A stretch of 64,000 nt of DNA, from the IMG/VR virus record IMGVR_UViG_3300044539_000240; one strand, given 5' to 3'. How positions within the stretch are numbered: the stretch's first letter is position 1; the number at the start of each line of letters is the position of its first letter. The notes below the pieces were generated by a model. It worked only from the letters and a program-made list of their open reading frames with translations. It searched no databases and was not told where the DNA came from. This DNA is from a virus. Shown one piece after another: positions 18,654-49,867 of the stretch. Both the position numbers and the translations under genes were made by a program.

Positions 18654-19316
18654 ATGATTAAGATAGAAAAAGACAGAAAAGTTTTTGTAACGTCTGATAC
18701 ACACTACGGACATAAAAACATTTGCCGTGGGGTGACAAATTGGAGATTACCGGATGGTAGTATTCCAATAGACCAAACAAGAGATTTCAAAACAATAGAA
18801 CAAATGAACGAATCTATTGTTAGTGGAATCAATAGTGTTGTTGGTGAAGATGATGTATTAATTCACTTGGGTGACTGGTCTTTTGGTGGGTTTGAAAACA
18901 TCCAAAAGTTTAGAGATAGAATTGTGTGTAAAGAGATTCACCTTATATTAGGTAATCACGACCACCACATTCAAAATAACCGAGGTGAGTGTCAGGAACT
19001 ATTTGCAAGCGTTACTCGTTCAACAACAATGACATACAAATTCAAAACATTTGAATTATTTCACTACCCTATTGCGTCTTGGGAAAACCTAAACAGAGGA
19101 GTTATTCACCTTCACGGGCACGTTCACTTACCAACAAACTTAAGATTTGGTAAAGGTAAAAAAATGGATGTTGGTATAGATGGTCACCCAACTTTTGGAG
19201 TATATGATATGGACGATATCATAAGAATTATGGATAAACGTGATATTGTGTCAGATATGTTATTTGACCACCACACGGATGAGGTTGAAACCGAAGATGG
19301 AAAAAAAAGAAAATAA
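18654..19316 (+). CDS. calcineurin-like metallophosphoesterase (220 aa)
   Basis: Motifs VTSDTHYGH, LGDWSFGG, LGNHDHH, HLHGHVH. Confidence 0.7.
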   Translation: MIKIEKDRKVFVTSDTHYGHKNICRGVTNWRLPDGSIPIDQTRDFKTIEQMNESIVSGINSVVGEDDVLIHLGDWSFGGFENIQKFRDRIVCKEIHLILGNHDHHIQNNRGECQELFASVTRSTTMTYKFKTFELFHYPIASWENLNRGVIHLHGHVHLPTNLRFGKGKKMDVGIDGHPTFGVYDMDDIIRIMDKRDIVSDMLFDHHTDEVETEDGKKRK

Positions 19317-19342
19317 AATTAGGATAGTAAATTTTAATTACT

Positions 19343-19350
19343 TACCTTTG
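19343..19350 (+). promoter_or_regulatory. Bacteroidetes -7 promoter element TACCTTTG
   Basis: TAnnTTTG 20 nt upstream of ATG 19371. Confidence 0.45.
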
Positions 19351-19370
19351 TCAAACAAAAATATAAAAAT

Positions 19371-19592
19371 ATGCAAACATTGATTTTTAACACAACAACA
19401 AAAAAAGTTCAGTTGTTGTCGGGTTCAAAAGGGGACTCAAAAGTATTAGAGGCATTTGATAATGTGTCTACCGTAAAATGTTCAGAACTTGGATATTACG
19501 AAATTATGCAGAAATCAGATGCTAGAGAGGCAACTGCAATTCCTGTGATGAGATTACCAATTTCAAATACCAATATGTTAATTGAAAAATAG
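19371..19592 (+). CDS. hypothetical protein (73 aa)
   Basis: ORF with a -7 promoter box upstream. Confidence 0.45.
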   Translation: MQTLIFNTTTKKVQLLSGSKGDSKVLEAFDNVSTVKCSELGYYEIMQKSDAREATAIPVMRLPISNTNMLIEK

Positions 19593-19875
19593 TATGAAGA
19601 AAATTGCGATTGTTATTGGGATTTTATTAGTAACGATTGGTTTAGTCGAAACAATTGATTTATCATTTTATCTGATGAATCGTCCGGACACATATCTATT
19701 CAATTTAGGTCTTGTATTGTTTGGATTACAATTATTAGGGTTTGCTGCTATAGGTGGTTTTATGTATGATTTAGTATCGAGATGGTCTAAAGATAAGGAA
19801 CCGGAAATAACAACCAAAGAACCTCAAAAACCAAAGAAGAAAAATAAAAATAACTTAAAACAAGAAAAAAAATGA
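19582..19875 (+). CDS. small membrane protein (2 TM) with Lys-rich tail; possible NfeD-like partner of the SPFH protein
   Basis: Two hydrophobic helices; stop overlaps start of 19872 (ATGA). Confidence 0.5.
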   Translation: MKNSMKKIAIVIGILLVTIGLVETIDLSFYLMNRPDTYLFNLGLVLFGLQLLGFAAIGGFMYDLVSRWSKDKEPEITTKEPQKPKKKNKNNLKQEKK

Positions 19876-20699
19876 GAAGAATTTTAGTAGCAGTAGGAAT
19901 TGTTGTATTACTTTTTACAATGGTAATGTCGTGTGAGAGAATCGATGCGGGTCACGTAGGTGTAAAAGTCGATATGTATGGAAGTGGTAAAGGGGTAAAC
20001 GATGTCACAGAATGTACGGGAGTAGTGTTTTATAACCCTATCACAACAAAAATTTATGAGTTCCCAACATTTATTCAACACAAAGAGTACAAAGATGAAA
20101 ATTCATTTGTCGTGAATAGTAAGGATGGTTCAGAATTTAGTGTTTCTCCAATTATGAACTATTCAGTTCAAAGAGAAAAAGTCCCTACAATATTCGCTAA
20201 ATACAGAAGAAGTTTGGAAGAAATTGAAGAAGGATTCTTAAAAACTGCTGTGTATGACGCATTCCGTTTAGCAACTAATAAGTATACCGCAGATGGATTA
20301 ATCGGAAATAGAGAAATTTTTGAGATTGAAGTTAGACGTTTGTTAGAAGCTCAATTACTTAAAGAAGGATTCGTAATCAATCAGTTCACATCTAATTTAG
20401 TTTATCCGGATTCATTCAAGAAAGCAATTAATGCTAAGAACAACGCGGTACAGTCGGCATTGATGGCGGAGAACAAAGTAAAACAGGCCGAGGCTGAGGC
20501 TAAAATTAAAGTGGCAACTGCTAATGGTAACGCAGAAGCATTATTGGCGAACGCAAGAGCCGAGGCGGAATCTAACAGATTAAGACAACAAACATTAACA
20601 CCAATGTTATTACAACAACAATGGATTGAGAAATGGAAAGGTAATGTTCCAACCACTCAGTTGGGAGCAAACACTCAAGTGTTGTACGGTCTAAAATAA
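19872..20699 (+). CDS. SPFH/band-7 (stomatin/prohibitin-like) membrane protein
   Basis: N-terminal TM helix then an SPFH-like domain and an Ala/Glu-rich coiled-coil tail (AEAEAKIKVATANGNAEALLANARAEAE). Confidence 0.55.
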   Translation: MRRILVAVGIVVLLFTMVMSCERIDAGHVGVKVDMYGSGKGVNDVTECTGVVFYNPITTKIYEFPTFIQHKEYKDENSFVVNSKDGSEFSVSPIMNYSVQREKVPTIFAKYRRSLEEIEEGFLKTAVYDAFRLATNKYTADGLIGNREIFEIEVRRLLEAQLLKEGFVINQFTSNLVYPDSFKKAINAKNNAVQSALMAENKVKQAEAEAKIKVATANGNAEALLANARAEAESNRLRQQTLTPMLLQQQWIEKWKGNVPTTQLGANTQVLYGLK

Positions 20700-20721
20700 T
20701 AAAAAAATAAAATATTTAAAA

Positions 20722-20749
20722 AATCCTCATTTATTGAGGATTTTTTTTT
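20722..20749 (+). terminator. intrinsic terminator after the SPFH gene
   Basis: aatcctca-tttat-tgaggatt hairpin plus T9. Confidence 0.7.
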
Positions 20750-20756
20750 ATCTTTG
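20749..20756 (+). promoter_or_regulatory. Bacteroidetes -7 promoter element TATCTTTG, 4 nt before ATG 20761
   Basis: TAnnTTTG overlapping the terminator T-run; implies a leaderless transcript for the RNA ligase gene. Confidence 0.45.
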
Positions 20757-20760
20757 CATT

Positions 20761-21840
20761 ATGAAAATTGATATAGAAATAATAAACAGATACGTTAGTG
20801 AAGGATTGATTGAGAAAAACTCTCACCCAACTCTTCCGATTGCAATTTACAATTACTCAAGAAAAGTTCAATATGAAGGTCTTTGGGATACTATGACCAG
20901 AAATTGTCGAGGTCTTGTGTTAGACAATGATGGTAATGTTCTTGCAAAACCATTTGGTAAATTTTTCAACATGGAAGAACACGACCCAAGTGAAATCCCA
21001 AATGAAACTTTTGAAGTGTTTGAAAAAATGGATGGTTCTTTAGGTATATTGTTTTGGTATCAGGGTAAATGGATTTTTGCAAGTAAAGGTTCATTCACTT
21101 CAGACCAAGCGATTAAAGGTCAAGAAATGTTATCAAAATATGATATACAACCAATCCCAAAAGGTTACACTACTTTGATGGAGATTATCTATCCTGAGAA
21201 TCGTATTGTTTGTGATTATGGCGACGAAGAAAGTTTGGTTGTACTTACAATGATTAGTAATGTTTCAGGAAAAGAATTCGACTACCCTTCTTTACTTCAA
21301 GTTTGTGAAGTTGTGGGAATGCCGGTGGTTAAACGATATGATGGGGTGGAAGATTATAAGACCCTTAAATCAATTATTAAGAACAATCAAGAAGGATTTG
21401 TTATTAGATTTAGAAATGGGTTTAGAATGAAGATAAAAGGGGAAGAATACGTTCGTCTCCACAGAATCTTAACCGGATTTTCTAATATAAACATTTGGGA
21501 AGTATTAAAAAATGGGGAAGACATAAACACATATTTGGATAAAGTCCCGGATGAATTTGACAAATGGGTTAAAAATGTGGTTAAAGATTTGAGATATGGG
21601 TATTTTCAAATTAGTGAAAGAGCTGGAAAAACGTTTGATTACTATATGTATGGTAAGTACAACGATAAAGAACCGGTTACAGACAGAAAAGTTTTTGCTG
21701 AATGGGTTATGACTCAAGAACAATATCTTCAACCAATATTATTTAAAATGTTTGATAAAAGGGATTATTCTTCATACATTTGGGAGAAAATAAGACCAAC
21801 ATACAGTAAACCATTTTGGCAAAAAGAAAGTGAGTCATGA
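20761..21840 (+). CDS. RNA ligase, T4 RnlA (Rnl1) family
   Basis: NCRGLVLDNDGNVLAKPFGKFFN (cf. T4 Rnl1 ECRGIMF..RPMEKFFN); nucleotidyltransferase motif I KMDGS (KxDG), motif IV EGFVIR, motif V KIKG. Start corrected to MKIDIEII. Confidence 0.75.
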   Translation: MKIDIEIINRYVSEGLIEKNSHPTLPIAIYNYSRKVQYEGLWDTMTRNCRGLVLDNDGNVLAKPFGKFFNMEEHDPSEIPNETFEVFEKMDGSLGILFWYQGKWIFASKGSFTSDQAIKGQEMLSKYDIQPIPKGYTTLMEIIYPENRIVCDYGDEESLVVLTMISNVSGKEFDYPSLLQVCEVVGMPVVKRYDGVEDYKTLKSIIKNNQEGFVIRFRNGFRMKIKGEEYVRLHRILTGFSNINIWEVLKNGEDINTYLDKVPDEFDKWVKNVVKDLRYGYFQISERAGKTFDYYMYGKYNDKEPVTDRKVFAEWVMTQEQYLQPILFKMFDKRDYSSYIWEKIRPTYSKPFWQKESES

Positions 21841-22046
21841 AACAAAAATTAGAAACGATTTACGAGACAAATATTGTCCATAATTCATTTTTGGATAAAG
21901 ATTCCATCATTCAAGCAATGGTGGAATCTTATAATTTAGGTAAACAGGAATTAATTAACTGGTTATCCGAAAAAGATTACTTATCGGATGATAAACAAAC
22001 TTTATTAAAAGAGTACAATAACCTCATTAACAACATAAAAAAATGA
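21837..22046 (+). CDS. hypothetical small protein (69 aa)
   Basis: First of four small genes with overlapping or adjacent stops and starts (ATGA junctions). Confidence 0.45.
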   Translation: MKQKLETIYETNIVHNSFLDKDSIIQAMVESYNLGKQELINWLSEKDYLSDDKQTLLKEYNNLINNIKK

Positions 22047-22225
22047 CAAACGAAGAATTCACTTTAGAAATACTAATGGAAGCCGAATCTTTAGGTATTC
22101 GTAAAGAAGTATTAGAATTATCTAATAAAATCAAACAGGAAAATGAATTTATGGATATTAACTCATCCATTGAAAAAGCATTTCAACACATGAAAGCCAA
22201 ATTACAAGAATATAATAATGTTTAA
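22043..22225 (+). CDS. hypothetical small protein (60 aa)
   Basis: Translationally coupled small ORF. Confidence 0.45.
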   Translation: MTNEEFTLEILMEAESLGIRKEVLELSNKIKQENEFMDINSSIEKAFQHMKAKLQEYNNV

Positions 22226-22801: not shown

Positions 22802-24004
22802 TTGGGATTTATGAATAACATAGACAAACAATATCAGGACTTACTACAAGACATTCTTGATAATGGTGTGGAGAAAAAAGACAGAACCGGGACGGGAACA
22901 ATCTCAGTATTCGGAAGACAAATCAGACATAAAATGTCAGAAGGATTCCCATTACTTACGACCAAAAAGATGCCGTGGAAATCAATCGTCACAGAACTTC
23001 TTTGGTTCCTTCAAGGGGATACAAACATCAAATGGTTGGTCGATAATGGATGTAACATTTGGAATGGTGATGCTTATAAAAATTATCTACTATTAATGAT
23101 TGGTAATGAACCTGAAAAGATTTTATCAATGGATGATTTTATTGATAAGATAAAGAACGATGATAAGTTTGCCAAGAAGTGGGGTGATTTAGGTCCAATT
23201 TACGGTAAGCAATGGAGGAAATGGGCACCTGAATCGGGTGAGATTAATAAAGGTGGTGTAGACCAAATCGCAAACCTAATCAACGACCTTAAATCAAATC
23301 CAGACTCAAGACGATTAATGGTTAATGCTTGGAATGTTGGAGAATTAGACCAAATGGTTCTTCCACCTTGTCATTATGGATTTCAAGTTTATACAAGAGA
23401 GTTGAGTTTGGAAAGAAGATATAACATATGGTTTAATAACAATTATGAAACTGGTATGGAAAGGTTTTTTGACCCTAATAATTTACCTGATTTTGATAAT
23501 GATTATTATACACCAACACCGACAAGAGCAATATCTCTAATGTGGAATCAACGAAGTGTAGATACATTCTTAGGATTACCATTTAATATCGCATCTTATG
23601 GATTGTTATTAGAAATCATTGCAAAAGAAGTTAATATGGTTCCGGATGAATTGATTGGAAATCTTGGTGATGTTCACCTTTATTTAAATCATATTGAACA
23701 AGCAAAAGAACAACTTGGTAGAAAATTAACATTTGACGAAAGAACGGAAATGTTGAAAGACAAGATGGGTATTGATAAGTATAATAAAGAACTTTCAGAA
23801 CTTGTTCCGTTTGGTGGGGGTATGAGTGAATTTTACAAATATTATAAAATTCCATATGAAACAAGAGAACCTTATGATTTACCTACATTGAAATTCTCAC
23901 CTTGTCCAATAACCGGAATTGATATGGAATATCAATCAATTGCCCAATTTCAAATTGAGAACTATGAATCACATCCGGTAATTAAAGCTCCTTTGAGTAA
24001 TTAA
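22802..24004 (+). CDS. thyA: thymidylate synthase (ThyA family) with three insertions (400 aa)
   Basis: DRTGTGT, GFPLLTTKK, ELLWFLQGDTN, GPIYGKQWR, RRLMVNAWN, catalytic Cys in LPPCHYGFQV, DTFLGLPFNIASYGLL, HPVIKAP. Three insertions relative to the ~264 aa enzyme: about 30 aa after NIW, and about 30 and 50 aa in the C-terminal half. Confidence 0.85.
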   Translation: MGFMNNIDKQYQDLLQDILDNGVEKKDRTGTGTISVFGRQIRHKMSEGFPLLTTKKMPWKSIVTELLWFLQGDTNIKWLVDNGCNIWNGDAYKNYLLLMIGNEPEKILSMDDFIDKIKNDDKFAKKWGDLGPIYGKQWRKWAPESGEINKGGVDQIANLINDLKSNPDSRRLMVNAWNVGELDQMVLPPCHYGFQVYTRELSLERRYNIWFNNNYETGMERFFDPNNLPDFDNDYYTPTPTRAISLMWNQRSVDTFLGLPFNIASYGLLLEIIAKEVNMVPDELIGNLGDVHLYLNHIEQAKEQLGRKLTFDERTEMLKDKMGIDKYNKELSELVPFGGGMSEFYKYYKIPYETREPYDLPTLKFSPCPITGIDMEYQSIAQFQIENYESHPVIKAPLSN

Positions 24005-29475: not shown

Positions 29476-31359
29476 ATGAAAAAACTTTTTATGGTGCTGT
29501 CATTCCTTGTGATGACTTCACTGGGTTATTCCCAAATTTGTCCGACACCGACAACTACCGGAGTTTTTGTTACATTAGACGCAACTTATCAATTAGCACC
29601 GGCATCTGCTGGTAATACTGAAGTAGGTTTATGTTTTTTTAACAATACTACCGAATTGATTACGGCTGTTCAGTTTCGAGTGTTTTATGATACCTCAGCA
29701 TTCACATCAGTGTCTTCTGTCGTATCGTCAAATACATCGTTCCCCCAATATATTCAATTTCAGGATAGTCCTGCAAATGGATATGTTACGATTACTCTAA
29801 CTTATACAGGTAATGACTCGAATTTTGAATTATCAAATGGGTCATTTGTAAAATTAAATTTAGTACACTCAGCGAATTTTGCGAGTTTGTCGTCTGTTCA
29901 ACCCATGACATTTAGTGGTGTTCAAACATTCCCACAAACCGCAACAAAACAAAATGGTTCTGACTATACTTTAAATTTACAAAACTTTGGTGGAGCATTT
30001 TTACCTCAACTATTTTCGTTTAGTGGTACATTCACTAACGTAACAGGAACGGGGTCAAAACTAATTCCGGTTATTTTAGAGAAAAAATTAATGACATCTT
30101 CAACTTGGATTCAAGCGTCAACAACACAAACAAATAACGCTGGTGTTTTCACATTTACAGATGTACCACTAGACGTTACAAGTTATGACGTTCGTATTAG
30201 AGTAGATGGTGAATCACTATCAATAGCAAATATCATTTCAACATCTGACTCACAAAAAATCAACAGATTTGTTTTAGGTCAAGATACTCCGACAGGATTT
30301 GATTTTTATTCATCTGATGTTAATGGTGACAACAACATATCAATTTCTGATGTGTATGGTGTGTTTGGTAGAGTATCAGGAAGATTTAGTTCTTGGCCTA
30401 ACTCGGTTAAAGATGTTAAATTCTTCTCAGATTCAGAATACACTTCTATTAATGGTTCAACATCATCTTTACAATCTACAATTCCGGGTGTAACGAATCT
30501 TGTTTACAACATTTTACCGGGTACAACAACAGTTACTTTCTATGTGTTAGTTAAAGGAGATGCTAATGGTACAGGTTTTAATATGGCTCGTATGACACCA
30601 ATTGAAATTGTAAACCCGTTAAACGCACCATCAAATATTATTGATGTTACAACAACTTATGACAACCCAACATTACAAACCATCGAATTAAACTATCCAA
30701 GTTTAACGGTAAATGAAAATAGTAGAGTTGAGGTTCCTGTTCTTGTAAAAACAAATGGAATTCAATTAGGTTCTTTACAACTGGCATTAAATTACAATAG
30801 TAATCTATTAGATTTTACAGGTGTTAGAGCTGAGAATAAAGTTAGTGGATGGATAACTTATGTTAATACAAATGATAATATTGTTGAGTGGGGTGGCTAT
30901 GACCCAACAAAAAATACAAAATTATTAAATGACAACGAATTAGCTTTCACACTACAATTCACATCGAAAGAAATTCAAAGTCAATGGGGTGTAAGTCCTT
31001 TATATGTTACAAAAAAATTCTCAGGAAATTCAATCGCTCGAGATTTGAAAATAATACCTACAAATGGGATTATTCAAATCATGAGAGTTATGAAACCAAC
31101 CGATTTAGAATATATGGTGACATACCCTAATCCAACTGATAATGACATCACTGTCAAATTTACTGTAGAAAAAGAAGGTAATGTTTGGTTATCTTTATAT
31201 GATTTGGGTGGTAGAGAAATTCAAACAATCGTTAACACTGATTTACATTCAGGTGAACACAGATATAGTACAAATGTTGGTTACCTTCCTTCAGGAACTT
31301 ACATAGTTACTCTTAAAAAAGGTACGGAAATAGAATCTAATAAGATAATCCGTAAATAA
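29476..31359 (+). CDS. secreted protein with Por/T9SS C-terminal sorting domain (627 aa)
   Basis: Signal peptide; C-terminal approximately 80 aa YPNPTDNDITVKFTVEKEGNVWLSLYDLGGREIQTIVN...GTYIVTLKKGTEIESNKIIRK fits the type-A CTD pattern (TIGR04183-like); internal dockerin-like DVNGDNNISISD; TATTTATAGG box 37 nt upstream. Confidence 0.6.
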   Translation: MKKLFMVLSFLVMTSLGYSQICPTPTTTGVFVTLDATYQLAPASAGNTEVGLCFFNNTTELITAVQFRVFYDTSAFTSVSSVVSSNTSFPQYIQFQDSPANGYVTITLTYTGNDSNFELSNGSFVKLNLVHSANFASLSSVQPMTFSGVQTFPQTATKQNGSDYTLNLQNFGGAFLPQLFSFSGTFTNVTGTGSKLIPVILEKKLMTSSTWIQASTTQTNNAGVFTFTDVPLDVTSYDVRIRVDGESLSIANIISTSDSQKINRFVLGQDTPTGFDFYSSDVNGDNNISISDVYGVFGRVSGRFSSWPNSVKDVKFFSDSEYTSINGSTSSLQSTIPGVTNLVYNILPGTTTVTFYVLVKGDANGTGFNMARMTPIEIVNPLNAPSNIIDVTTTYDNPTLQTIELNYPSLTVNENSRVEVPVLVKTNGIQLGSLQLALNYNSNLLDFTGVRAENKVSGWITYVNTNDNIVEWGGYDPTKNTKLLNDNELAFTLQFTSKEIQSQWGVSPLYVTKKFSGNSIARDLKIIPTNGIIQIMRVMKPTDLEYMVTYPNPTDNDITVKFTVEKEGNVWLSLYDLGGREIQTIVNTDLHSGEHRYSTNVGYLPSGTYIVTLKKGTEIESNKIIRK

Positions 31360-31427
31360 TTTATGGTGTCACAATTTGTGACACCAAAGCCTATAAGAAG
31401 GAAATAAACAATTAAAATTAAATTAAA

Positions 31428-31769
31428 ATGTCAGAAGAAACACAAGAAACACAAAATGATGGTACTTGGTCAGGATTAAAGAAAACAATAATAGGTACTT
31501 TAACTACTGTTATTGGTGGTGGTGGTATATGGTTATCAACACAATTGTTTGGAGGTCATGGTGACGATAAAGAAGAAACAAAAACAGAACAAGTTGCACA
31601 ACCTGCAGCCGCACCTGTAGTTATCAATCTACAAAACAACAACACAAACCAACAAAAACAACAAAACAATGGTGGTGGTACTAACACAATTATCAGAGAA
31701 AAAGTTGTGGAAAAACCAGCAGCACAACCAGCACCTGCTAAACCAAAAACGGAAGAAGACCCTTGGTAA
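31428..31769 (+). CDS. membrane-anchored Pro/Ala/Gln-rich protein (113 aa)
   Basis: One TM helix IIGTLTTVIGGGGIWLSTQLFGG then low-complexity PAAAP/Q-N-rich region. Confidence 0.5.
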   Translation: MSEETQETQNDGTWSGLKKTIIGTLTTVIGGGGIWLSTQLFGGHGDDKEETKTEQVAQPAAAPVVINLQNNNTNQQKQQNNGGGTNTIIREKVVEKPAAQPAPAKPKTEEDPW

Positions 31770-31770
31770 T

Positions 31771-32487
31771 ATGAAAAAAATAGTATTACTATTACCTTTT
31801 TTACTTTTTTCGTGTATTGGATTATCCCAAACTATTGGAACCATAAAAACTGAGGACTATAAAGCAGATTTTGAAAAAAAACAATCTTTAGATGTTGTCA
31901 GTGATTATAATGGTGACATTGTAATACCAATCCAAATATTAAAAATTGGTATCAACGATGAGGTATATGAGATGTATCCTGAACTAAAAGATAAACGAGT
32001 AGGTCTTGGGGTTGCGAATATTGTATTAGAGTATTTAGAATCAACAGATAGATTTAAATTCACTGAGGATAAAGCGGAAATCAAAAACAAAATGATTGCC
32101 CAAGATAAGGCGTCTGATAAAGGAATTTCAAGTAATAAAATAGAAGTTAAAGGTAATGTAATTTTAGCTAACTATTTTGTTTACATAGAAGTTTACGATT
32201 TCAGTGTCTCAGAAGACGAAGTGATTAAAGGAAGTGAAGGTGCTAAAATAACTCAAACAACTCGTTTAGGTTTACAGATTAGATTTGTCGATGCCCAAAC
32301 CGGTGAAGTTATAACTGGTAGTGGGTTAGGTGAGTCTAACACAGTGAAAACATCATCGTTATTAGATGATGTTGATGAAATTAAATTTAACCAATCAACA
32401 ATTGGTATATCAACAAAAAAATCGTTAGAAACCGCATCTTCAAGAGTTGTTTCTAAATTAATTAAAAAAGGGGTTTTTAAAGAATAA
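31771..32487 (+). CDS. lipoprotein. Start corrected to MKKIVLLLPFLLFSC.
   Basis: Lipobox L-F-S-C. ATG lies 2 nt after the stop of the preceding gene. The longer ORF upstream overlaps that gene. Confidence 0.55.
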   Translation: MKKIVLLLPFLLFSCIGLSQTIGTIKTEDYKADFEKKQSLDVVSDYNGDIVIPIQILKIGINDEVYEMYPELKDKRVGLGVANIVLEYLESTDRFKFTEDKAEIKNKMIAQDKASDKGISSNKIEVKGNVILANYFVYIEVYDFSVSEDEVIKGSEGAKITQTTRLGLQIRFVDAQTGEVITGSGLGESNTVKTSSLLDDVDEIKFNQSTIGISTKKSLETASSRVVSKLIKKGVFKE

Positions 32488-33944: not shown

Positions 33945-33946
33945 CT

Positions 33947-34732: not shown

Positions 34733-34734
34733 AT

Positions 34735-35181
34735 ATGAAAAAATTATTAATTACATTATTGATGTTAGGTTCACTAACATCTTTCTCTCAAAATTGTTAT
34801 ACAGTTAAAGAAGTTAAAAACAATGGAGATATCGAAGGTGTTAACCCAAAAAGATTCACTTTAGGAGTTAAACAAATTACTGAAGAAATATTATCAGTTA
34901 ACAATACAATATGCGAAGACGGTAAACCTGTTTCAGTATTAATAGAAAGTATTGAAGCTCCGTCAACCGGTATATCATTAGGGCCATTTGAAAGAAAAAG
35001 AAAAAAAACAATAGTTACTTTAATTATCACTAAAGATGGTAAAGAATATAAAGGTGTTGGTGATTCAAATACTGATGTAAAATCAACATTTATAGAATTA
35101 CAGGATGAAAATCTCCCTTTTGAAAAATCGGCATTTTCTTCGGCATTAAAAAAAGCAATACAAAACGCATTAGAACTATAA
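34735..35181 (+). CDS. small secreted protein (148 aa)
   Basis: Signal peptide MKKLLITLLMLGSLTSFSQ. Confidence 0.5.
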   Translation: MKKLLITLLMLGSLTSFSQNCYTVKEVKNNGDIEGVNPKRFTLGVKQITEEILSVNNTICEDGKPVSVLIESIEAPSTGISLGPFERKRKKTIVTLIITKDGKEYKGVGDSNTDVKSTFIELQDENLPFEKSAFSSALKKAIQNALEL

Positions 35182-37444: not shown

Positions 37445-37452
37445 TATCTTTG
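37445..37452 (+). promoter_or_regulatory. Bacteroidetes -7 promoter element TATCTTTG
   Basis: TAnnTTTG 16 nt upstream of ATG 37469; TTTG (possible -33) about 30 nt further upstream. Confidence 0.5.
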
Positions 37453-38442: not shown

Positions 38443-38450
38443 TATCTTTG
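38443..38450 (+). promoter_or_regulatory. Bacteroidetes -7 promoter element TATCTTTG
   Basis: Context ttattatctttgtaaaaaatta is nearly identical to the 37445 box; 16 nt upstream of ATG 38467. Confidence 0.5.
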
Positions 38451-38466: not shown

Positions 38467-39171
38467 ATGAGAGTAACACTTATTTCAGACACACACAACA
38501 AACACAAACAAATTACCGGTGATTTACCGGGTGGTGATTTATTGGTACATAGTGGTGATATATCATCTATGGGTTACGAACACGAAATTAGAGAGTTCTG
38601 TAAATGGTTTAACAACATTGAAGGTTATACTCACAAGGTATTCATCGCAGGGAACCACGATTGGGGTTTCCAAGACAATGTTGAGAAGGTAAAAGAGATT
38701 TTAGATTTCTACACCGGAATTACATACCTTCAAGATAGTGAATTGGTAATCAAAGTTGGTGATGAAAGAGAAGTAAAAATCTACGGTAGTCCTTGGCAAC
38801 CTTGGTTTCACGATTGGGCTTTCAATTTACAAAAAAATGGTATTGCTTTGTCAGGTAAATGGGAAGGAATTCCTGATGATACTGATATCTTACTTACTCA
38901 CGGACCTGCGTTTGGTATATTAGACACTGTTGAAGGTAGAAGACACAATAATTTAGGTTGTGAACTATTGGCAGAAAGATTAGAAAGATTGAATGTTAAA
39001 CTTCACAATGTTGGTCATATCCACACAGGATATGGTTATGTTATGAAAAATAATACTCATCATTTTAATTCTGCAGTATTAGATGAAAGATATAATTACG
39101 CACAAAGACCAATGACTATTGATTGGAATCCGGACACAAACGAAGTAAATTTTATTGAAGATGGAAAATAA
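38467..39171 (+). CDS. calcineurin-like metallophosphoesterase (second copy, 234 aa)
   Basis: LISDTHNKH, HSGDISSMGY, AGNHDW, THGPAFG, GHIHTGYG. Confidence 0.7.
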   Translation: MRVTLISDTHNKHKQITGDLPGGDLLVHSGDISSMGYEHEIREFCKWFNNIEGYTHKVFIAGNHDWGFQDNVEKVKEILDFYTGITYLQDSELVIKVGDEREVKIYGSPWQPWFHDWAFNLQKNGIALSGKWEGIPDDTDILLTHGPAFGILDTVEGRRHNNLGCELLAERLERLNVKLHNVGHIHTGYGYVMKNNTHHFNSAVLDERYNYAQRPMTIDWNPDTNEVNFIEDGK

Positions 39172-40327: not shown

Positions 40328-40345
40328 AGGTGCAAAGATATAAAA

Positions 40346-41326
40346 TTATATTAAATCTTTCAATCTGTCACCATATAAATTTATAACTCTTTTTAAGAAA
40401 GCGTCAGGATTTTTTCTAATATACTCCAAAACATCATAACGAATATTTTTTGAATATTTTCCAAATAATTCAGCAATTTTATCAACTTTTTGACCTCTTT
40501 CTTTGTTATACCTAAAGTTATTTATTTTATTTACATCTATAATCGGAAAAGTAATAGTTTTTCTATTTCCTGATAGAGCATCATTATGAGATAATGATAT
40601 CGAAGAACTAACTTTACCTGAATTTGCTTTTCTCAACAACATATCCATAACTTCTTCGTTATTTTTTACAGTGTATTCAATAACATTTCCCGTTTTAGGT
40701 AATACTCCAAATATCCAATTTACATTATTAAAAGAAACTTGCATCATTTGATTTTTATAAAAATCATATTCAGGTCCTTTTTTCATTAAATCATATGGTT
40801 TTTTAATACCTTCAACTGATAATGTATCATCTTCTGAAATACCTTGTAACGCAACTTTTAAACCTTTATTTAATGACCCTAGTGAATATCTTTCCCCGGG
40901 AATTGTGAGTTTAACAGAATAAGGAACCCCTTCAATCATAATGTCAGCCATAGTACCTTCTCGATTACCTTCAGTTGTTGGTATTGCAACTCCACCGGTA
41001 AATAACCCAGCCATCAAACCTTCAAAGAAGAACCCACGACCATCAGTTTCCTCTTGTAAACTAATAAAATATTGATAAAATCGAATTCTATCAACCATTT
41101 TTTTAACATCTAAATTTAAATTAACGTCAGTCCCGTCAGTAGAAAAATCATAAGTACCAATACCCTCAGAATTTAATATTTTTGGTATAACCTTAGCCGC
41201 TTGTGTTTTACTTTTTGGAATTGGGGAAATTGTCGGCATAACAACCTCTAAAGATTTTGCAACATCTACAATATTTTGTTCCTTTAAGTATAAATTAAAT
41301 TGAGATTCGGTAATTTTAATTTTCAT
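40346..41326 (-). CDS. N-terminal motif family member (MKIKITESQFNLYL), 326 aa
   Basis: K-I-T-E-S-Q; TATTTATAAAT immediately 5' of ATG on the coding strand. Confidence 0.6.
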   Translation of the reverse strand: MKIKITESQFNLYLKEQNIVDVAKSLEVVMPTISPIPKSKTQAAKVIPKILNSEGIGTYDFSTDGTDVNLNLDVKKMVDRIRFYQYFISLQEETDGRGFFFEGLMAGLFTGGVAIPTTEGNREGTMADIMIEGVPYSVKLTIPGERYSLGSLNKGLKVALQGISEDDTLSVEGIKKPYDLMKKGPEYDFYKNQMMQVSFNNVNWIFGVLPKTGNVIEYTVKNNEEVMDMLLRKANSGKVSSSISLSHNDALSGNRKTITFPIIDVNKINNFRYNKERGQKVDKIAELFGKYSKNIRYDVLEYIRKNPDAFLKRVINLYGDRLKDLI

Positions 41327-43312: not shown

Positions 43313-43813
43313 TTATTGACCTTTAATCATTGAGATTCCATGTTTTAAGAATTCTTTAGCTCTTGCAGATACATGATTCATCATATAAACCTTTTCGATG
43401 TCTTTAACTAACTCTTCACCATGTTCATTCTCCTTGTAAAGTTCAATGATTTTATCCATGGCTTTATTACACTCTTTCTTTGTTTCATCAAAATAGTTGT
43501 AAGGTTTGAAACCCTTTAAATGATTCATAATTTCAGACGCTAAATGTTCTCCACCATCCGAAACTTTTGGGTGTAATCTAAGAGTTTTCAATAACTCAAG
43601 TTTATCAACTAATCCGTTAACACCATTTCTTCTAATTGTAACACCATCAATATAATCTTCTGACTCATCGTCACCCATTATATCATCCAATGTTTTAACA
43701 TTTCCACCGTGGCAGAATTTTCTATCTTCTTTTTCTTCAGATTGTTCAATCATATAAAGTTTTTTGATTGAGTCAATTTCTGATTCCGTAATTGTAAATC
43801 TTTTAGTTCCCAT
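43313..43813 (-). CDS. N-terminal motif family member (MGTKRFTITESEIDSI), 166 aa
   Basis: T-I-T-E-S-E; GATATATTTATAGAC immediately upstream of ATG. Confidence 0.55.
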   Translation of the reverse strand: MGTKRFTITESEIDSIKKLYMIEQSEEKEDRKFCHGGNVKTLDDIMGDDESEDYIDGVTIRRNGVNGLVDKLELLKTLRLHPKVSDGGEHLASEIMNHLKGFKPYNYFDETKKECNKAMDKIIELYKENEHGEELVKDIEKVYMMNHVSARAKEFLKHGISMIKGQ

Positions 43814-44576: not shown

Positions 44577-45218
44577 ATGAAAAACATTATTTTAACTTTA
44601 GGATTTATTCTGATGTCTTCACTATTATTTAGCCAAGATACTATTAGAATTAAACACACTAATTATACAACCGTATTTAGTAAAACTAAACATTACCCGG
44701 TCTTAGTTGAATGGTGGACAACAAAGTCTATGGTGACTTGTAAAACACCTCTCAAACGAAAAGATAACTTTAAACCGGACCCTCAATTACCAAAAGAAAC
44801 AGATTTATTAAAAGATTATATTGGTAGTGGTACCGACCGAGGTCATATGATGCCAGCAGCAGATAATCTTTGTCAAACACCACAAGTTCAAGATGAGTGT
44901 TTCTACTTTTCAAATATGTCGGCACAATATCATTCGTTAAATGCTGGTGATTGGAAATCATTAGAAACATTAACTCGTAAGTTAGCTACCGAACAAGATA
45001 GTATTAAAGTTTGGTGTGGGAATGTTGGTGAGATTAAGAGAATTGGTAGAGTATCGGTTCCTAAACAATGTTGGAAAGTTGTTTACATAAAAAAAAGTAA
45101 CACATACTACTCATATCTTTTTGATAACACTACAAATAAACCAGATGGTATTGAAAATAATTTAGTTAAAATTGAAGTCATTGAGAAGTTAACCGGATTT
45201 AAATTTAATGTAAAATAA
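44577..45218 (+). CDS. secreted DNA/RNA non-specific endonuclease (Serratia NucA/NUC1 family)
   Basis: Signal peptide MKNIILTLGFILMSSLLFSQ; active-site motif TDRGHMMPAADN (DRGH with catalytic His) and downstream Asn/Glu residues. Confidence 0.7.
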   Translation: MKNIILTLGFILMSSLLFSQDTIRIKHTNYTTVFSKTKHYPVLVEWWTTKSMVTCKTPLKRKDNFKPDPQLPKETDLLKDYIGSGTDRGHMMPAADNLCQTPQVQDECFYFSNMSAQYHSLNAGDWKSLETLTRKLATEQDSIKVWCGNVGEIKRIGRVSVPKQCWKVVYIKKSNTYYSYLFDNTTNKPDGIENNLVKIEVIEKLTGFKFNVK

Positions 45219-45682: not shown

Positions 45683-46024
45683 TTAAAAATCGTTAGTTTT
45701 AATCATATCCATATTAGCATCGTATACACTAAATCTTATTGATGTTTTATCATTATCAATACCAAGATAAGGTAATAATCTCCTAATATGGTGGTCAACC
45801 ATCCAATGTTCATCAAAATTAAATTTATCCCATAAATCATCTTCTTCTTTTGGTTCATTCAAATAAATGTTCAAATAAATGTTAAGGTGTAAAGTATCTT
45901 CAAGAACATCAAAAGGGTTATCACTATTGTGGACTTCAATTTCACCAACAATAGGGTAGATGCTTTTAATAACATCACTATTAACTAATTTTTCAAGTCC
46001 TTTAATTTGAAAATCGTTTATCAT
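45683..46024 (-). CDS. hypothetical protein (113 aa)
   Basis: ATGA overlap with both neighbours; internal 12 nt direct repeat (NIYLNIYLN). Confidence 0.5.
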   Translation of the reverse strand: MINDFQIKGLEKLVNSDVIKSIYPIVGEIEVHNSDNPFDVLEDTLHLNIYLNIYLNEPKEEDDLWDKFNFDEHWMVDHHIRRLLPYLGIDNDKTSIRFSVYDANMDMIKTNDF

Positions 46025-46386
46025 AAGTAATAATCTATTGTGTTAACGGGAATTTTAAACGTTTCAACAAACCACTCTTTAAACCCTTCTTTCCAATTAT
46101 CGTTAAAATAACCTTCTAATGAGTTAAGAAGTCCTTGGTCTTCAACATACAACATTGGACTTAATGGTTTTCGGTAATCTGAAGCTCCGGTCCAATAGTC
46201 TTCACCATATAACCTGAACAATGTTTCATCATCCATATAATCACCTAAATAAAATTCAATTGCGTCTTGTTCCTGACCCCAATCATCAGTTAAATGAGTC
46301 CAATTAATATTCTCAACATCCAAAGTGTTGTTTAGGTAATTTTTAACCGTTTGATTTAATTTACTTTCCGTTATTATGTATTTCAT
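46021..46386 (-). CDS. N-terminal motif family member (MKYIITESKLNQTVKNYLNNTLDVENINWTHL), paralog of 58537..58908
   Basis: Roughly 30 identical N-terminal residues shared with 58537..58908. Confidence 0.6.
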   Translation of the reverse strand: MKYIITESKLNQTVKNYLNNTLDVENINWTHLTDDWGQEQDAIEFYLGDYMDDETLFRLYGEDYWTGASDYRKPLSPMLYVEDQGLLNSLEGYFNDNWKEGFKEWFVETFKIPVNTIDYYL

Positions 46387-46657: not shown

Positions 46658-46658
46658 G

Positions 46659-47267
46659 TTATGCGATATATGGTGGTTTTGGACTACTTCCTTTTAAATA
46701 ACCATCTGCAACTTTGGCCAATAAATCACCTGTACCCCAAGTTTTAAGTCCTTTCATTCTAGATAATTCAAATAGACCTACATCATTTTTAAGTCCATCA
46801 ATAATATCATTATATCTTCCATTTTTTAATGTCTTACAAGTAGATTGAATACCATCTCCCTGTGTTTGGTAATTTTTTACACCAACACTATTATAATTTG
46901 TTGCACCAGCCATTTTTTGTGTAGTGTTAAATGGATTATTAGTGGCCTTACCACCTTCCGCTTGTCTCCAAGCATACATAAATGACATATTATCTTTAGT
47001 AGGTTTTGCACCAACACATGATAAAACTTCTTTATAGAAATCATCATCTGTTGTTGTTATTGATTTTATATCACTTTCTTTATCACCTAACATTGACGGA
47101 TTGTCCTTAATTTTATCAGTTGAATCTGTAGAAGTGGATGATTTAGGATTCAATATTTTACCTACATAATCTTTAATGATGTCAGCAGCACCTTTACCTG
47201 TTACTTGTTTTGAAATCATATCAATTAAATCTTGTTCAGTTAACCTAACTTTATATTTTTTTCCCAT
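46659..47267 (-). CDS. N-terminal motif family member (MGKKYKVRLTEQDLIDMI), 202 aa
   Basis: R-L-T-E-Q; CTATTTATAGAT immediately upstream. Confidence 0.55.
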   Translation of the reverse strand: MGKKYKVRLTEQDLIDMISKQVTGKGAADIIKDYVGKILNPKSSTSTDSTDKIKDNPSMLGDKESDIKSITTTDDDFYKEVLSCVGAKPTKDNMSFMYAWRQAEGGKATNNPFNTTQKMAGATNYNSVGVKNYQTQGDGIQSTCKTLKNGRYNDIIDGLKNDVGLFELSRMKGLKTWGTGDLLAKVADGYLKGSSPKPPYIA

Positions 47268-47757: not shown

Positions 47758-47801
47758 ATTTTATCTTTTTAGAAATATATGAAAAGTATTTTATTTTGTC
47801 A

Positions 47802-47859: not shown

Positions 47860-48098
47860 ATTATAACTTCAACATCTAAACCAACATAATTTTTTATTTT
47901 ATCACGAATTAATAATTGGTATTTTGTTTTTGATTTACTCATTAAATAATTTTTCAATTTAATTAAAACATATATGGAACCGTTATCCGTCATTTCAACA
48001 CCAACTTTTATTGACAATGGAACCTTAATATCCTCAACGATTTCTTTAATTGTGGATTTTATCCTTTCTTTTTGTTTTTCACTAATAATAACATCCAT
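47832..48098 (-). CDS. hypothetical protein (88 aa)
   Basis: One nt after the stop of 48100 (TAA-N-ATG junction); its 3' end is tandemly duplicated. Confidence 0.5.
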   Translation of the reverse strand: MDVIISEKQKERIKSTIKEIVEDIKVPLSIKVGVEMTDNGSIYVLIKLKNYLMSKSKTKYQLLIRDKIKNYVGLDVEVIMIENSDIDS

Positions 48099-48099
48099 A

Positions 48100-49131
48100 C
48101 TATTCAGGATTTAACGAATATAACCTAATGAAATTTCTTCTTAACTTTTCACCCATCTTATTTATTGTTGGTTGGAAATATTTCATTAAATCCAAGATAT
48201 TTTCGGTGTTCATTATTTTTTTATCCAAAGGATTGTTATATCCCGTCTTTTTACTAAATTCATAGTAAGCAATAAAATACGTGTGAAGTGTTTTTAAAAG
48301 GGTATTTTGTTCTTCTTGAGGTAAATCTTCAATAAGTTCCAAAATATATTCATAATAATCGCTAGCATCAAAGTTAATCATCCCCTGACAATATTGCCAA
48401 TATTTGGTAGTTTTGAATTGTTCAAATGGCATTCTCAATCTTTTACTATACGCTTCTTGAGACATCGCTCTTACTTCATAAGGTTCAGACATATACAATA
48501 AAGATAAAAATTGTTTCCAAACAGAAAGAACTTCTTCGTTTAGTCCGGTGTCAAACATCTCAAAAGGTTTTTTCATAAATGATAAAGTGGTATCCAAACC
48601 TTTTTCACCTTTTAATGCTCTGTTGTAATATTCATACATATGATTGAGTTCATGTAATACAGAATCCCTAAAATCATACATCATCTCATCAATATCTTCA
48701 AAATCTTTATTGATTATAAATTGAAACTCAAAACCTGCAACCAATGACATATGAATCTCATCCGAAAAACTTTTTGGTAAATATTTGCTAGGTTCTTTTA
48801 TATAAGAACCATTATCAATCATATCTGCATAAGCTAAAACTTGGAATCCTTCAGGGATTGGATTCTCATCCAATCTTTCAAAAGAAAATTTGATTATAAT
48901 TTCTTCAATTGGTAGTTCAATAAAATCTTCCAAATTAGATTTATAAATTGGGAAAATATCTTTTAGAGATAATTTAAGTGTTTCCTCTATTTTTTTATCT
49001 GAATTAAATAAACTCTTAACTTTTCCACTAACAAAGTCGTAAATTAGATTTGTAAATGGGATAGACGCACGGGAAACCCCTAAGTCTTCGGTTAGTAATT
49101 TGTATTGTGATTCTGTAATGATATATTTCAT
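48100..49131 (-). CDS. N-terminal motif family member (MKYIITESQYKLLTE) with HExxH motif (VLHELNHMYEYY); possible metallopeptidase effector, 343 aa
   Basis: Family N-terminus; HELNH; GTATTTATAAAAT upstream. Confidence 0.55.
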   Translation of the reverse strand: MKYIITESQYKLLTEDLGVSRASIPFTNLIYDFVSGKVKSLFNSDKKIEETLKLSLKDIFPIYKSNLEDFIELPIEEIIIKFSFERLDENPIPEGFQVLAYADMIDNGSYIKEPSKYLPKSFSDEIHMSLVAGFEFQFIINKDFEDIDEMMYDFRDSVLHELNHMYEYYNRALKGEKGLDTTLSFMKKPFEMFDTGLNEEVLSVWKQFLSLLYMSEPYEVRAMSQEAYSKRLRMPFEQFKTTKYWQYCQGMINFDASDYYEYILELIEDLPQEEQNTLLKTLHTYFIAYYEFSKKTGYNNPLDKKIMNTENILDLMKYFQPTINKMGEKLRRNFIRLYSLNPE

Positions 49132-49203
49132 ATTTTATAAATACCTAAATAACCATATTTGACTTATTAATCATTATTTAATATTATTCTAAAAAAAAAA
49201 ACT

Positions 49204-49413
49204 ATGATATACTTAAATGTAATTTTAACCGTCCTTTGTCTTATTTTAATTTCTTTTCTTATATTAGCCATTTATTTAGTGAAGGAGTATAAAAATAAAT
49301 TTAAACAATTCCCATCTCAAATGAATCCAACTTGGGGTAATATTCCAAACTCTCCTGAAGATTTAAATGAAATGACCACTAAATTAATGAAAGAATTATT
49401 TAAAGGTAAATAA
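49204..49413 (+). CDS. small membrane protein (69 aa)
   Basis: N-terminal TM helix ILTVLCLILISFLILAIYL. Stop lies 4 nt before the kinase gene. Confidence 0.45.
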   Translation: MIYLNVILTVLCLILISFLILAIYLVKEYKNKFKQFPSQMNPTWGNIPNSPEDLNEMTTKLMKELFKGK

Positions 49414-49417
49414 CATT

Positions 49418-49867
49418 ATGAGAAACATAAATAATCACTTATCGGAGGCCATAACGGATATTGAAACAACTAAAGGGACAACTAAAGAATTATTTCTATT
49501 AAGAGGATTACCGGGAAGTGGTAAGTCAACATTGGCAAAATCAATAAGTGGTATTCATTTTGAAGCGGATATGTATTTTATGAAAGATAATAAATATCAG
49601 TTTGATATTACTAGATTAAAAGATGCACATCAATGGTGTCAAGAAGGTGTTGAAAAAGGTATGACAGTTTTAAACCAGTCTCGTATTGTAGTGTCAAACA
49701 CATTTACACAGGAGTGGGAAATGAAACCATATTTTGACTTAGCTGAAAAATACGGATATAGAGTTTATTCTTTAATCGTTGAAAATAGACACGATGGTGT
49801 TAATGAACATGGGGTTCCGGAAGATAAATTGAAAATAATGAAGAATCGTTTTGAGGTAAAACTTTAA
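49418..49867 (+). CDS. P-loop kinase, polynucleotide-kinase (PNK/AAA_33)-like, kinase domain only (149 aa)
   Basis: Walker A LLRGLPGSGKSTLAKSI near the N-terminus and a downstream Asp (FEADMYF), as in T4 PNK and 5-hmdU DNA kinase-like proteins. Confidence 0.5.
   Translation: MRNINNHLSEAITDIETTKGTTKELFLLRGLPGSGKSTLAKSISGIHFEADMYFMKDNKYQFDITRLKDAHQWCQEGVEKGMTVLNQSRIVVSNTFTQEWEMKPYFDLAEKYGYRVYSLIVENRHDGVNEHGVPEDKLKIMKNRFEVKL

Follow-up and report, generated by a model that had tools for sequence, protein, structure and literature searches.

The IMG/VR virus record IMGVR_UViG_3300044539_000240 contains a stretch of DNA 64 kb long (referred to below as the window), which encodes a calcineurin-type metallophosphoesterase (MPE1), an Rnl1-family RNA ligase, and a P-loop kinase resembling polynucleotide kinases (PNK). 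The genes of these three enzymes, here called the trio, lie close together in many related phages. Sequence comparisons suggest, with a probability of roughly 0.6, that the window holds a rearranged copy of a conserved three-enzyme phage RNA-repair module composed of MPE1, the kinase, and the ligase. A first-pass annotation had described the three genes and a second metallophosphoesterase (MPE2) as a dispersed RNA-repair toolkit, listed next to a tRNA array and a secreted nuclease. All the genes that it named are present where it had placed them, and matches to Pfam, PHROG, and structures agree with the superfamilies to which it had assigned them. The members of the trio are:

18654-19316, plus strand: MPE1, a stand-alone calcineurin-type metallophosphoesterase of 220 amino acids from the aq_1665 (PDB 1xm7) family.
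20761-21840, plus strand: the ligase, an Rnl1-family ATP-dependent RNA ligase of 359 amino acids with an ATG start, the sealing enzyme.
49418-49867, plus strand: the kinase, a stand-alone PNK-like P-loop kinase of 149 amino acids, proposed to be a 5'-OH polynucleotide kinase.

The window has a G+C content of about 31%, is gene-dense, and encodes phage-type functions. In GenBank, near-identical DNA is limited to 147 nt of the thymidylate synthase of Flavobacterium phages. Metagenomic viral contigs near-identical to the window exist, and related contigs span 150-350 kb. The protein encoded at 29476-31359 contains a cohesin-like domain and a C-terminal sorting domain of type IX secretion, which points to a Bacteroidota host. 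The source of the window is probably a large phage infecting a member of this phylum, probably a freshwater one. A row of proteins with signal-peptide-like N-termini is encoded on the plus strand at 29476-36156.

Gene neighbourhoods were compared among viral metagenome contigs, of which up to 80 were taken for each of three anchors (kinase, ligase, and MPE2). De-replication at 90% identity of the anchor protein resulted in 31 kinase-anchored, 44 ligase-anchored, and 29 MPE2-anchored lineages. Neighbour families, gene order, and tRNA genes were scored in 43 representative related loci; individual contigs are designated by L numbers. Cultured phages were searched by tblastn with the kinase against 50,697 phage records. 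Within the window, 107 open reading frames (ORFs) are listed, and the Pfam scan covered 51 of them.

The ligase matches the Pfam family PF09511 (RNA_lig_T4_1) with an E-value of 5.9e-20 and 72.5 bits against a cut-off of 28.3. It also matches phrog_562, which is of the T4 gp63 type (3.4e-68, ligase residues 14-351 of 359 aligned to profile positions 21-367 of 377), and the T4 Rnl1 structures 2c5u and 5tt6 (1e-15). The score against the NCBIfam equivalog model TIGR02308 is 86 bits over model positions 50-358 of 373, and the cut-off of that model is 242. Because the threshold of PF09511 is passed and that of TIGR02308 is missed, the protein is a member of the family but not an equivalog of T4 RnlA. 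In the alignment to 2c5u, the ligase residues R50, K67, K89, K109, E141, E211/G212, and K224/K226 match R54, K75, K99 (of the KxDG motif), K119, E159, E227/G228, and K240/K242 of T4 Rnl1, which we take to be the essential residues according to the T4 mutational literature. The lysine nucleophile is K89 in the sequence KMDGS. The pairwise alignment to the T4 protein ends at residue 243, and the C-terminal extension of the ligase aligns to Rnl1 family profiles. The C-terminal domain of Rnl1 confers tRNA specificity on the T4 enzyme.

The start of the ligase gene is likely the ATG at 20761 rather than the upstream TTG at 20734, because a hairpin with a T-run (20720-20749) and a TATCTTTG box (20749-20756) directly precede the ATG. 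The PF09511 and phrog_562 matches, the T4 alignment, and the upstream hairpin and box thus uphold both the Rnl1-type identity and the start at 20761 given in the first-pass annotation. The nearest homologues of the ligase in cultured phages, those of Arthrobacter phage Seahorse and Streptomyces phage StarPlatinum, have 36-38% identity to it, and each adjoins a fused T4-type Pnkp with AAA_33 and HAD_PNKP domains. One subfamily of ligases is therefore paired either with a fused Pnkp or with the kinase and MPE1, as predicted if the two pairings are equivalent in function.

The kinase contains the Walker A motif GLPGSGKST and matches AAA_33 (3e-10) and phrog_2071 (5.2e-42), with additional weak matches to phrog_505, labelled 'polynucleotide kinase'. 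Searching the PDB with the single sequence returned P-loop noise alone, and a family profile was needed. The best matches of the profile are CthPnk (4gp7, 1.2e-4), the entry 9d8a ('Rhizopus azygosporus Kinase', presumably a kinase of the tRNA-ligase type), T4 Pnk (1ly1, 5e-4), and the tRNA kinase PSTK. The AlphaFold2 (AF2) model of the kinase has a predicted local distance difference test score (pLDDT) of 78, and Foldseek aligns it to T4 PNK with a template-modelling (TM) score of 0.62 and a root-mean-square deviation of 3.3; CthPnk, Pnkp1, and mammalian PNKP were also matched. Profile and fold agree in describing the protein as PNK-like, as had been noticed before. The Walker A motif and the nearest solved relatives, the latter identified by weak scores, place the kinase putatively in the clade of polynucleotide 5'-kinases.

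Residue D51 of the kinase is invariant in the family, and in a hand alignment it corresponds to D35 of T4 Pnk (EAD51MY against NRD35DY), whereas the hidden Markov model (HMM) alignment to CthPnk is shifted by one position. The catalytic aspartate, D35 in T4 and D38 in CthPnk, serves as the general base. The window kinase retains all residues that are invariant across the 13-sequence family alignment A1. It lacks a second domain, and the stand-alone proteins of its subfamily are 127-149 amino acids long. A search of the window for a HAD (DxDxT) phosphatase or a match to T4 Pnkp, performed with a provisional T4 query sequence, returned nothing besides the kinase. Homologues of the kinase in GenBank are mostly labelled 'ATPase' or 'hypothetical', and some are labelled 'polynucleotide kinase' or 'NEDD4-binding protein 2'.

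MPE1 matches the Pfam family Metallophos (5.9e-8) and phrog_547, labelled 'phosphoesterase' (1.9e-45). The only PDB match of its family profile is aq_1665 (1xm7, 3.4e-13), a structural-genomics protein, and no chains of CthPnkp or lambda phosphatase are among the matches with E-values of up to 1. The family alignment shows no variation in the metal-ligand motifs SDTH..H, GDxS, GNHD, and HGHxH or at the residues D15, H17, D74, N101, H102, H156, and H158 of MPE1. Judged by its similarity to 1xm7 and by the motifs of the calcineurin superfamily, both of which are present, MPE1 is an aq_1665-like metallophosphoesterase. It is proposed to act as the 3'-end healing enzyme, removing 2',3'-cyclic phosphate or 3'-phosphate. 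The comparison with the phosphatase of bacterial Pnkp drawn in the first-pass annotation is valid for the calcineurin superfamily, but the profile of MPE1 matches aq_1665 and not CthPnkp or lambda phosphatase.

The three genes are neighbours in most related phages. In the kinase-anchored lineages, MPE1 is found within 10 kb in 24 of 31, the ligase in 19, and both in 17; the genes often abut, and the partners are encoded on the same strand in all cases but one. In the 44 ligase-anchored lineages, 37 have MPE1 and 35 have the kinase within 10 kb, all on the same strand, and within 3 kb the kinase is present in 32 and MPE1 in 29. By our own estimate, chance would account for proximity within 3 kb in at most about 7% of genomes of at least 100 kb. 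The association of MPE1, the kinase, and the ligase across related phages is non-random.

The same arrangement is found in cultured phages. The kinase matches 626 of the 50,697 phage records, and many of the matches abut an annotated RNA ligase. The best 100 of the 626 matches are from PAK_P1-like, rV5-like, and Thalassavirus phages and others similar to them. Vibrio phage Pontus has the three genes in direct succession (ligase, kinase, phosphoesterase). In Pseudomonas phages Pyxpy02 and Amme-3, the ligase and kinase genes abut, and the phosphoesterase gene is upstream of the pair, at a distance of two or three small genes. The phosphoesterases of these three phages are homologues of MPE1 (30-31% identity, E-values of 1e-18 to 4e-24) and not of MPE2. 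The gene order of the trio varies among lineages (ligase-MPE1-kinase, MPE1-kinase-ligase, and ligase-kinase-MPE1), and the intervening genes differ. Since the proximity outlasts reordering, including in distant cultured phages, it has the usual mark of functional coupling.

It is unlikely, although the neighbourhoods themselves lend it some weight, that the three genes are adjacent only because they share an early or auxiliary block, and that their products act independently. The ligase could then function in tail-fibre attachment, as is reported for T4 gp63, or in RNA processing, and the substrates of the kinase and MPE1 could be nucleotides or NAD or ADP-ribose metabolites. The label of phrog_562 is tail-fibre attachment, and in Pontus, Pyxpy02, and Amme-3 the trio is positioned beside ribose-phosphate pyrophosphokinase, nicotinamide phosphoribosyltransferase, and other phosphatases. 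Several lineages have the kinase and MPE1 but no ligase nearby, and genes flanking MPE2 recur near the trio, indicating synteny at the level of the block. However, the proximity is maintained across very distant phages despite changed order and flanks, the nearest solved relatives of the kinase are polynucleotide kinases and not nucleotide kinases, cyclic-phosphate-processing receiver (cRec) domains join the cluster, and orthologues of the ligase elsewhere are paired with a bona fide Pnkp.

The window differs from its closest relatives in the position of the kinase. Among lineages with a clustered trio, the nearest have the order MPE1-(o112)-kinase-o73-(SPFH)-ligase-o81...thyA, whereas the order in the window is MPE1-o73-membrane ORF-SPFH-ligase-o81-o81...thyA. 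From this comparison it follows that only the kinase has moved, by about 28 kb, in the clade of the window. All ligases at least 74% identical to that of the window, and one further ligase at 64%, are without a kinase within 10 kb. MPE1 and the ligase are 1.4 kb apart on the same strand and belong to one plus-strand gene block. The word dispersed, used for the toolkit in the first-pass annotation, is thus accurate for the kinase and MPE2 but not for MPE1 and the ligase. The functional link between separately encoded healing and sealing enzymes that it had postulated is borne out for MPE1, the kinase, and the ligase by the conserved neighbourhood; for MPE2 the link is weak, and for the nuclease none was found.

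The trio is widespread in phages. Metagenomic phage contigs that encode it number in the thousands, and it is also present in many cultured phages infecting Pseudomonas, E. coli, Klebsiella, and Vibrio, whereas a search of the genomes of 185,579 species identified only 23 loci, mostly in metagenome bins that look viral. The kinase subfamily thus appears to be essentially viral. PAK_P1-like phages, for example Pseudomonas phage vB_PaeM_PS3, encode a T4-type Pnkp with a 381-amino-acid RNA ligase and, elsewhere in the genome, the small kinase, annotated as hypothetical, abutting a second RNA ligase of 306 amino acids (PMC10511388). The presence of two apparently parallel sets hints against simple redundancy of the trio in these phages.

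Domains of the family cREC_REC, the cyclic-phosphate-processing receiver, were identified with E-values of 6e-19 and 6e-22 inside or beside the trio in 14 of the 43 loci (L189-L195, L199, L212, L218, L220, L223, L224, L227, and L230). No cRec was found in the window, even when the family HMM was run without filters. The presence of cRec domains in the cluster, in a third of the loci, suggests a role of the trio in RNA repair.

The cRec domains also bear on the nature of the ends that would be healed. T4 Pnkp and mammalian PNKP, which are fold neighbours of the kinase, also act on DNA, Pyxpy02 and Amme-3 encode an ATP-dependent DNA ligase 2-3 kb upstream of the trio, and MPE1 has a very weak match to the model of the ligase-associated PdeM (19 bits, cut-off 150). 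The kinase and MPE1 might accordingly serve as 5'-OH kinase and 3'-phosphatase of DNA ends, in nick repair or replication. This is quite improbable, since the recurrent partner is an Rnl1-type RNA ligase, there is no DNA ligase among the recurrent neighbours in the 43 loci, and cRec suggests ends with a cyclic phosphate, a type that arises on RNA. Both DNA-end repair and clustering through a shared block explain the data less well than RNA repair.

From the family assignments, the catalytic residues of the ligase, and the gene neighbourhood, we infer the following substrates, order of steps, and biological target. A host ribonuclease, for example an anticodon nuclease, would cut tRNA or another RNA, leaving one end with a 2',3'-cyclic phosphate and another with a 5'-OH. 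In the approximately one third of related phages that carry cRec, this domain may first open the cyclic phosphate. MPE1 would remove the 3'-terminal phosphate, the kinase would phosphorylate the 5'-OH, and the ends thus healed would be joined by the ligase via the usual lysyl-AMP pathway. The trio would thus be a functional equivalent of T4 Pnkp and Rnl1, with a metallophosphoesterase in place of the HAD phosphatase and with kinase and phosphatase as separate proteins. The broader proposal that the trio, accompanied in some lineages by a 73-amino-acid protein and cRec, constitutes a widespread phage tRNA-repair system distinct from T4 Pnkp-Rnl1 has slightly less than an even chance of being correct.

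Several observations weigh against the trio being an RNA-repair module. The sequence similarity of the kinase to polynucleotide kinases is weak (E-values of about 1e-4), and in the Foldseek comparison the kinase domain of PFK-2 equals the polynucleotide kinases in fold score. The arginine that binds the acceptor nucleotide, positioned three residues beyond the catalytic aspartate (R38 in T4, R41 in CthPnk), is absent from the kinase, where the hand alignment has a nearly invariant F54; other invariant basic residues (R29, R124, and R144) might substitute for it. MPE1 appears to be related to the phosphatase of bacterial Pnkp at the superfamily level and no more closely, its AF2 model is poor (mean pLDDT 62), and Foldseek returned no PDB match to the model with an E-value below 1e-3. 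In the window, the kinase is positionally unlinked to MPE1 and the ligase and is not preceded by the TAnnTTTG box present upstream of MPE1, the ligase, and MPE2. About one fifth of the kinase lineages have the kinase and MPE1 without a ligase within 10 kb, and the neighbourhoods shared by related phages are partly inherited rather than independently selected. The literature searched contained no experimental work on the kinase family, on aq_1665-type enzymes, or on the trio. Lastly, a thymidylate-synthase homologue belongs to the same conserved block as the ligase in the lineage of the window.

The thymidylate-synthase-superfamily gene (22802-24004) recalls known genes of 5-hydroxymethyluracil DNA kinase (5-HMUDK), which co-occur with a dUMP hydroxymethylase of that superfamily (PMC5889632). 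Kinases of this type are those of the phages ViI, M6, SP10, and PhiW-14, and a DNA-glycosylase-fold transferase is a further gene found with them. The kinase could by analogy be a 5-HMUDK or a deoxynucleoside monophosphate (dNMP) kinase, with a function in DNA modification or nucleotide supply. However, the best 100 of the 626 matches include neither a 5-HMUDK label nor a ViI-like or M6-like phage, no nucleotide-kinase family is among the Pfam or NCBIfam matches of the kinase, and the adjacency of kinase, ligase, and MPE1 is also found in phages without a neighbouring thyA (Pontus, Pyxpy02, and Amme-3). This identity, which is very improbable, was rejected based on the distribution of the matches and on synteny; the conserved partners of the kinase are the RNA ligase and MPE1.

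The proposed repair by the trio resembles that by T4 Pnkp and Rnl1, which counter the anticodon nuclease PrrC. The sealing enzyme belongs to the Rnl1 family, with its catalytic residues kept and its C-terminal region aligned, the kinase may belong to the same P-loop clade as the kinase domain of Pnkp, and both ends would be healed and then sealed; in addition, the nearest cultured homologues of the ligase adjoin a T4-type Pnkp. Unlike the T4 system, the trio includes a separate metallophosphoesterase, and the window contains no HAD domain match (with the provisional T4 query). The kinase is a stand-alone protein of 127-149 amino acids that forms a subfamily of its own and is without the acceptor-binding arginine, the genes in the window are not all contiguous, and the ligase reaches 86 of the 242 bits required of a T4 RnlA equivalog.

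The chemistries of the trio, a P-loop 5'-kinase, a dinuclear metallophosphoesterase, and an ATP-dependent ligase, are also those of the bacterial CthPnkp/Hen1 and Pnkp1-Rnl-Hen1 systems, and the profile of the kinase has its best PDB sequence match in the kinase domain of CthPnk. In contrast to CthPnkp, the trio consists of three polypeptides instead of one, MPE1 is of the aq_1665 family, and the ligase is of the Rnl1 type and not a C-terminal ligase domain of Pnkp. No Hen1 methyltransferase turned up in the Pfam scan of the 51 window ORFs, and the carriers of the trio are phages.

In large phages, ATP-grasp RNA ligases are accompanied by polynucleotide kinases, by phosphoesterases (for the most part HAD, occasionally calcineurin-like or HD), by cRec, and by tRNA arrays, according to the accessible part of the text of Iyer et al. 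2021 (PMC7824862). The trio fits this general description. The exact combination of an aq_1665-type phosphoesterase, a kinase of the small subfamily, and an Rnl1 ligase is not named in that part of the text, nor is the 73-amino-acid companion. The general idea of a phage RNA ligase acting with a kinase and a phosphoesterase has thus been published, and the window appears to hold a widespread and computationally anticipated variant of heal-and-seal repair.

Defences that cleave tRNA are being found in many bacteria, and to our knowledge T4 Pnkp with Rnl1 is the only well-studied repair answer of a phage. Should the trio heal and seal RNA, phages probably use it very commonly as a counter-defence. 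A first function would then be assigned to the aq_1665 phosphoesterase family and to a kinase subfamily with thousands of viral members, and the kinase would exemplify acceptor binding by a polynucleotide kinase that lacks the canonical arginine. In PAK_P1-like phages, the coexistence of the trio with a T4-type Pnkp and a second ligase would point to a target of its own, either a distinct class of RNA damage or a distinct host nuclease. For the window itself the result is modest, one more and slightly scrambled copy of the trio.

The remaining genes that the first-pass annotation had named are:

38467-39171, plus strand: MPE2, an MPPED2-type (class III) metallophosphodiesterase of 234 amino acids.
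44577-45218, plus strand: an Endonuclease_NS nuclease (5.8e-37) that has a signal-like N-terminus and contains a DRGH motif.
193-819, minus strand: five tRNA genes (Tyr-GTA, Val-TAC, Cys-GCA, Gln-TTG, and Ser-TGA), four of which are confirmed by Rfam.

MPE2 matches Metallophos (6.4e-11) and, over residues 2-219, the MPPED2 structure 3rl4 (1.1e-39), with all metal-binding motifs present; by this comparison it is a full-length homologue of the MPPED2 or class III metallophosphodiesterases. Its motif GHIH is also that of the 3rl4 chain; the 3rl3 chain has GGIH in its place, which we take to be the wild-type mammalian sequence. MPE2 resembles MPPED1 and MPPED2 in its full-length homology and metal motifs, and differs from them in being phage-encoded and in having GHIH where 3rl3 has GGIH. 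Its positional link to the trio is loose. Among the 29 MPE2-anchored lineages, the kinase is found within 3 kb in six, MPE1 within 10 kb in four, and the ligase within 10 kb in one. MPE2 directly follows the ligase in the contig pairs L066/L067 and L069/L070.

A tentative alternative, somewhat short of even odds, is that MPE2 is a class III cyclic-nucleotide phosphodiesterase that acts outside RNA repair, for example by lowering cyclic-nucleotide signals of the host. The full-length similarity to MPPED2 and the canonical GHIH motif are in line with this function, as is the scarcity of the kinase and the ligase near MPE2. Enzymes of the MPPED family hydrolyse cAMP and cGMP (PMC10547211), and phage calcineurin-like phosphodiesterases have been predicted to counter nucleotide signals (PMC7824862). 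However, the kinase is found near MPE2 more often than expected from random placement in genomes of 150-300 kb, and MPE2 does follow the ligase directly in the two contig pairs. Furthermore, in a window without cRec some enzyme must open the cyclic ends if MPE1 does not, and 2',3'-cyclic phosphodiesterase activity is documented for the dinuclear metallophosphoesterases CthPnkp and lambda phosphatase (PMC2190708). A role of MPE2 outside RNA repair is at least as likely as one within it, and the enzyme is at most a peripheral candidate for repair. Its placement in the repair pathway, as first annotated, finds little backing in the neighbourhood data.

The tRNA genes of the window are 18 kb from MPE1, on the opposite strand, and outside the interval 18654-49867. 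Of the 43 related loci, 17 have tRNA genes no more than 10 kb from the trio, although the window does not, and in several loci a large tRNA array is encoded on the same strand a few kilobases upstream of the trio, with 18 tRNAs in L027 and 16 in L199. The proximity in related loci is no more than suggestive of a link between the tRNA array and repair. ARAGORN identified unusually long tRNA-like genes of about 92 nt, with a Pro-TGG or a four-base 'ccct' anticodon, a few kilobases downstream of the ligase in related contigs (L199 13407-13498, L220 14905-14996, L224 17229-17320, L227 10589-10682 and 11219-11310, and L212 14299-14390). A tRNA-Ser(TGA) gene is positioned about 5 kb downstream of the ligase in L173-L175, L180, and L205.

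The DRGH nuclease is not among the recurrent neighbours of the trio in the 43 loci. Enzymes of the Endonuclease_NS family leave 5'-phosphate and 3'-OH ends, which need no healing.

Other genes of the plus-strand block around MPE1 and the ligase are:

19371-19592, plus strand: o73, a protein of 73 amino acids, the companion of the module.
19872-20699, plus strand: an SPFH/Band-7 lipoprotein, between MPE1 and the ligase (Band_7 5.4e-21, phrog_200 1.3e-66).
22802-24004, plus strand: a thymidylate-synthase (thyA) homologue of 400 amino acids, compared with 266 positions of the profile.

The o73 protein has no Pfam or PHROG match, and its homologues are present in 17 of the 43 loci, mostly directly after the kinase, in the usual order kinase-o73-(SPFH)-ligase. 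The SPFH gene is positioned between the kinase and the ligase in seven related loci; its product is regarded as a lineage-specific passenger, and no role in repair is argued for it. A family of 81-amino-acid proteins (o81) is encoded downstream of the ligase in 14 loci, and two copies are present in the window (21837-22046 and 22043-22225). An apparent second ligase downstream in related loci was dismissed as a clustering artefact, the gene being thyA. The thyA homologue is split into two ORFs in L173 (6713-7387 and 7752-8351) and L214 (12701-13246 and 13998-14723), with a gap of about 0.4-0.75 kb, and the split resembles the product of an intron or a mobile insertion.

Promoter-like boxes precede several of the genes, including:

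18642-18649, plus strand: a TATCTTTG box 4 nt upstream of the start codon of MPE1.
20720-20749 and 20749-20756, plus strand: a terminator-like hairpin with a T-run, followed by a TATCTTTG box 4 nt before the ATG of the ligase.

A further TATCTTTG box (38443-38450) is positioned 16 nt before the start of MPE2. The exact octamer occurs 11 times in the window, compared with 5.1 expected, and at least seven of the occurrences are just upstream of start codons. It fits the -7 promoter consensus of Bacteroidota, which we take to be TAnnTTTG. Any TAnnTTTG is present within 60 nt upstream of 14 of the 107 listed ORFs, and the ligase with its ATG start is the fifteenth. The full Bacteroidota pattern TTTG-N17-23-TAnnTTTG was found 12 times in the window against 6.8 expected, which is no clear enrichment. 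The boxes suggest that MPE1, the ligase, and MPE2 may be transcribed by the host polymerase, possibly with very short leaders, and a spacing of 4 nt between box and start codon would imply nearly leaderless mRNAs. Additional TATCTTTG boxes 4-5 or 16 nt from starts are at 7632-7639, 37445-37452, 40333-40340 (minus strand), and 63279-63286 (minus strand), and the genes that they precede include ClpP.

At least 11 otherwise unrelated-looking ORFs of the window share an N-terminal motif (MKYIITESQ/K..., MKIKITESQ..., or ..RLTESEL..). All are on the minus strand, at 48100-49131, 46021-46386, 58537-58908, 58215-58565, 57905-58258, 55380-55688, 40346-41326, 51020-51880, 61229-61819, 46659-47267, and 43313-43813. 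Six of them were scanned and have no Pfam or PHROG match. The capsid-targeting sequence of T4 is cut after I/L-x-E, and the shared motif could, by analogy, be a targeting or propeptide signal reminiscent of it, in which case the proteins could be packaged or ejected.

A minus-strand gene at 56644-57453 encodes a protein of 269 amino acids that consists of the catalytic core of a class II aminoacyl-tRNA synthetase only (tRNA-synt_2 7.4e-14, phrog_29758 7e-94), without an anticodon-binding domain. Auxiliary genes at 3750-5414 (plus), 5418-7007 (plus), 7656-8402 (plus), 15471-16139 (minus), and 16128-17381 (plus) encode two tandem carbamoyltransferases, a ClpP protease, a 2OG-Fe(II) oxygenase, and a family-17 glycosyltransferase; the set is unusual and might modify a nucleotide, a sugar, or a protein. 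The minus-strand gene at 17411-18445 encodes an extremely acidic protein of 344 amino acids, which has no family match and contains a CxxC...CxxC pair and repeated DPAYDF(E/D)S(E/D)GPG segments. The near-identical contig L164 has a different gene at this position.

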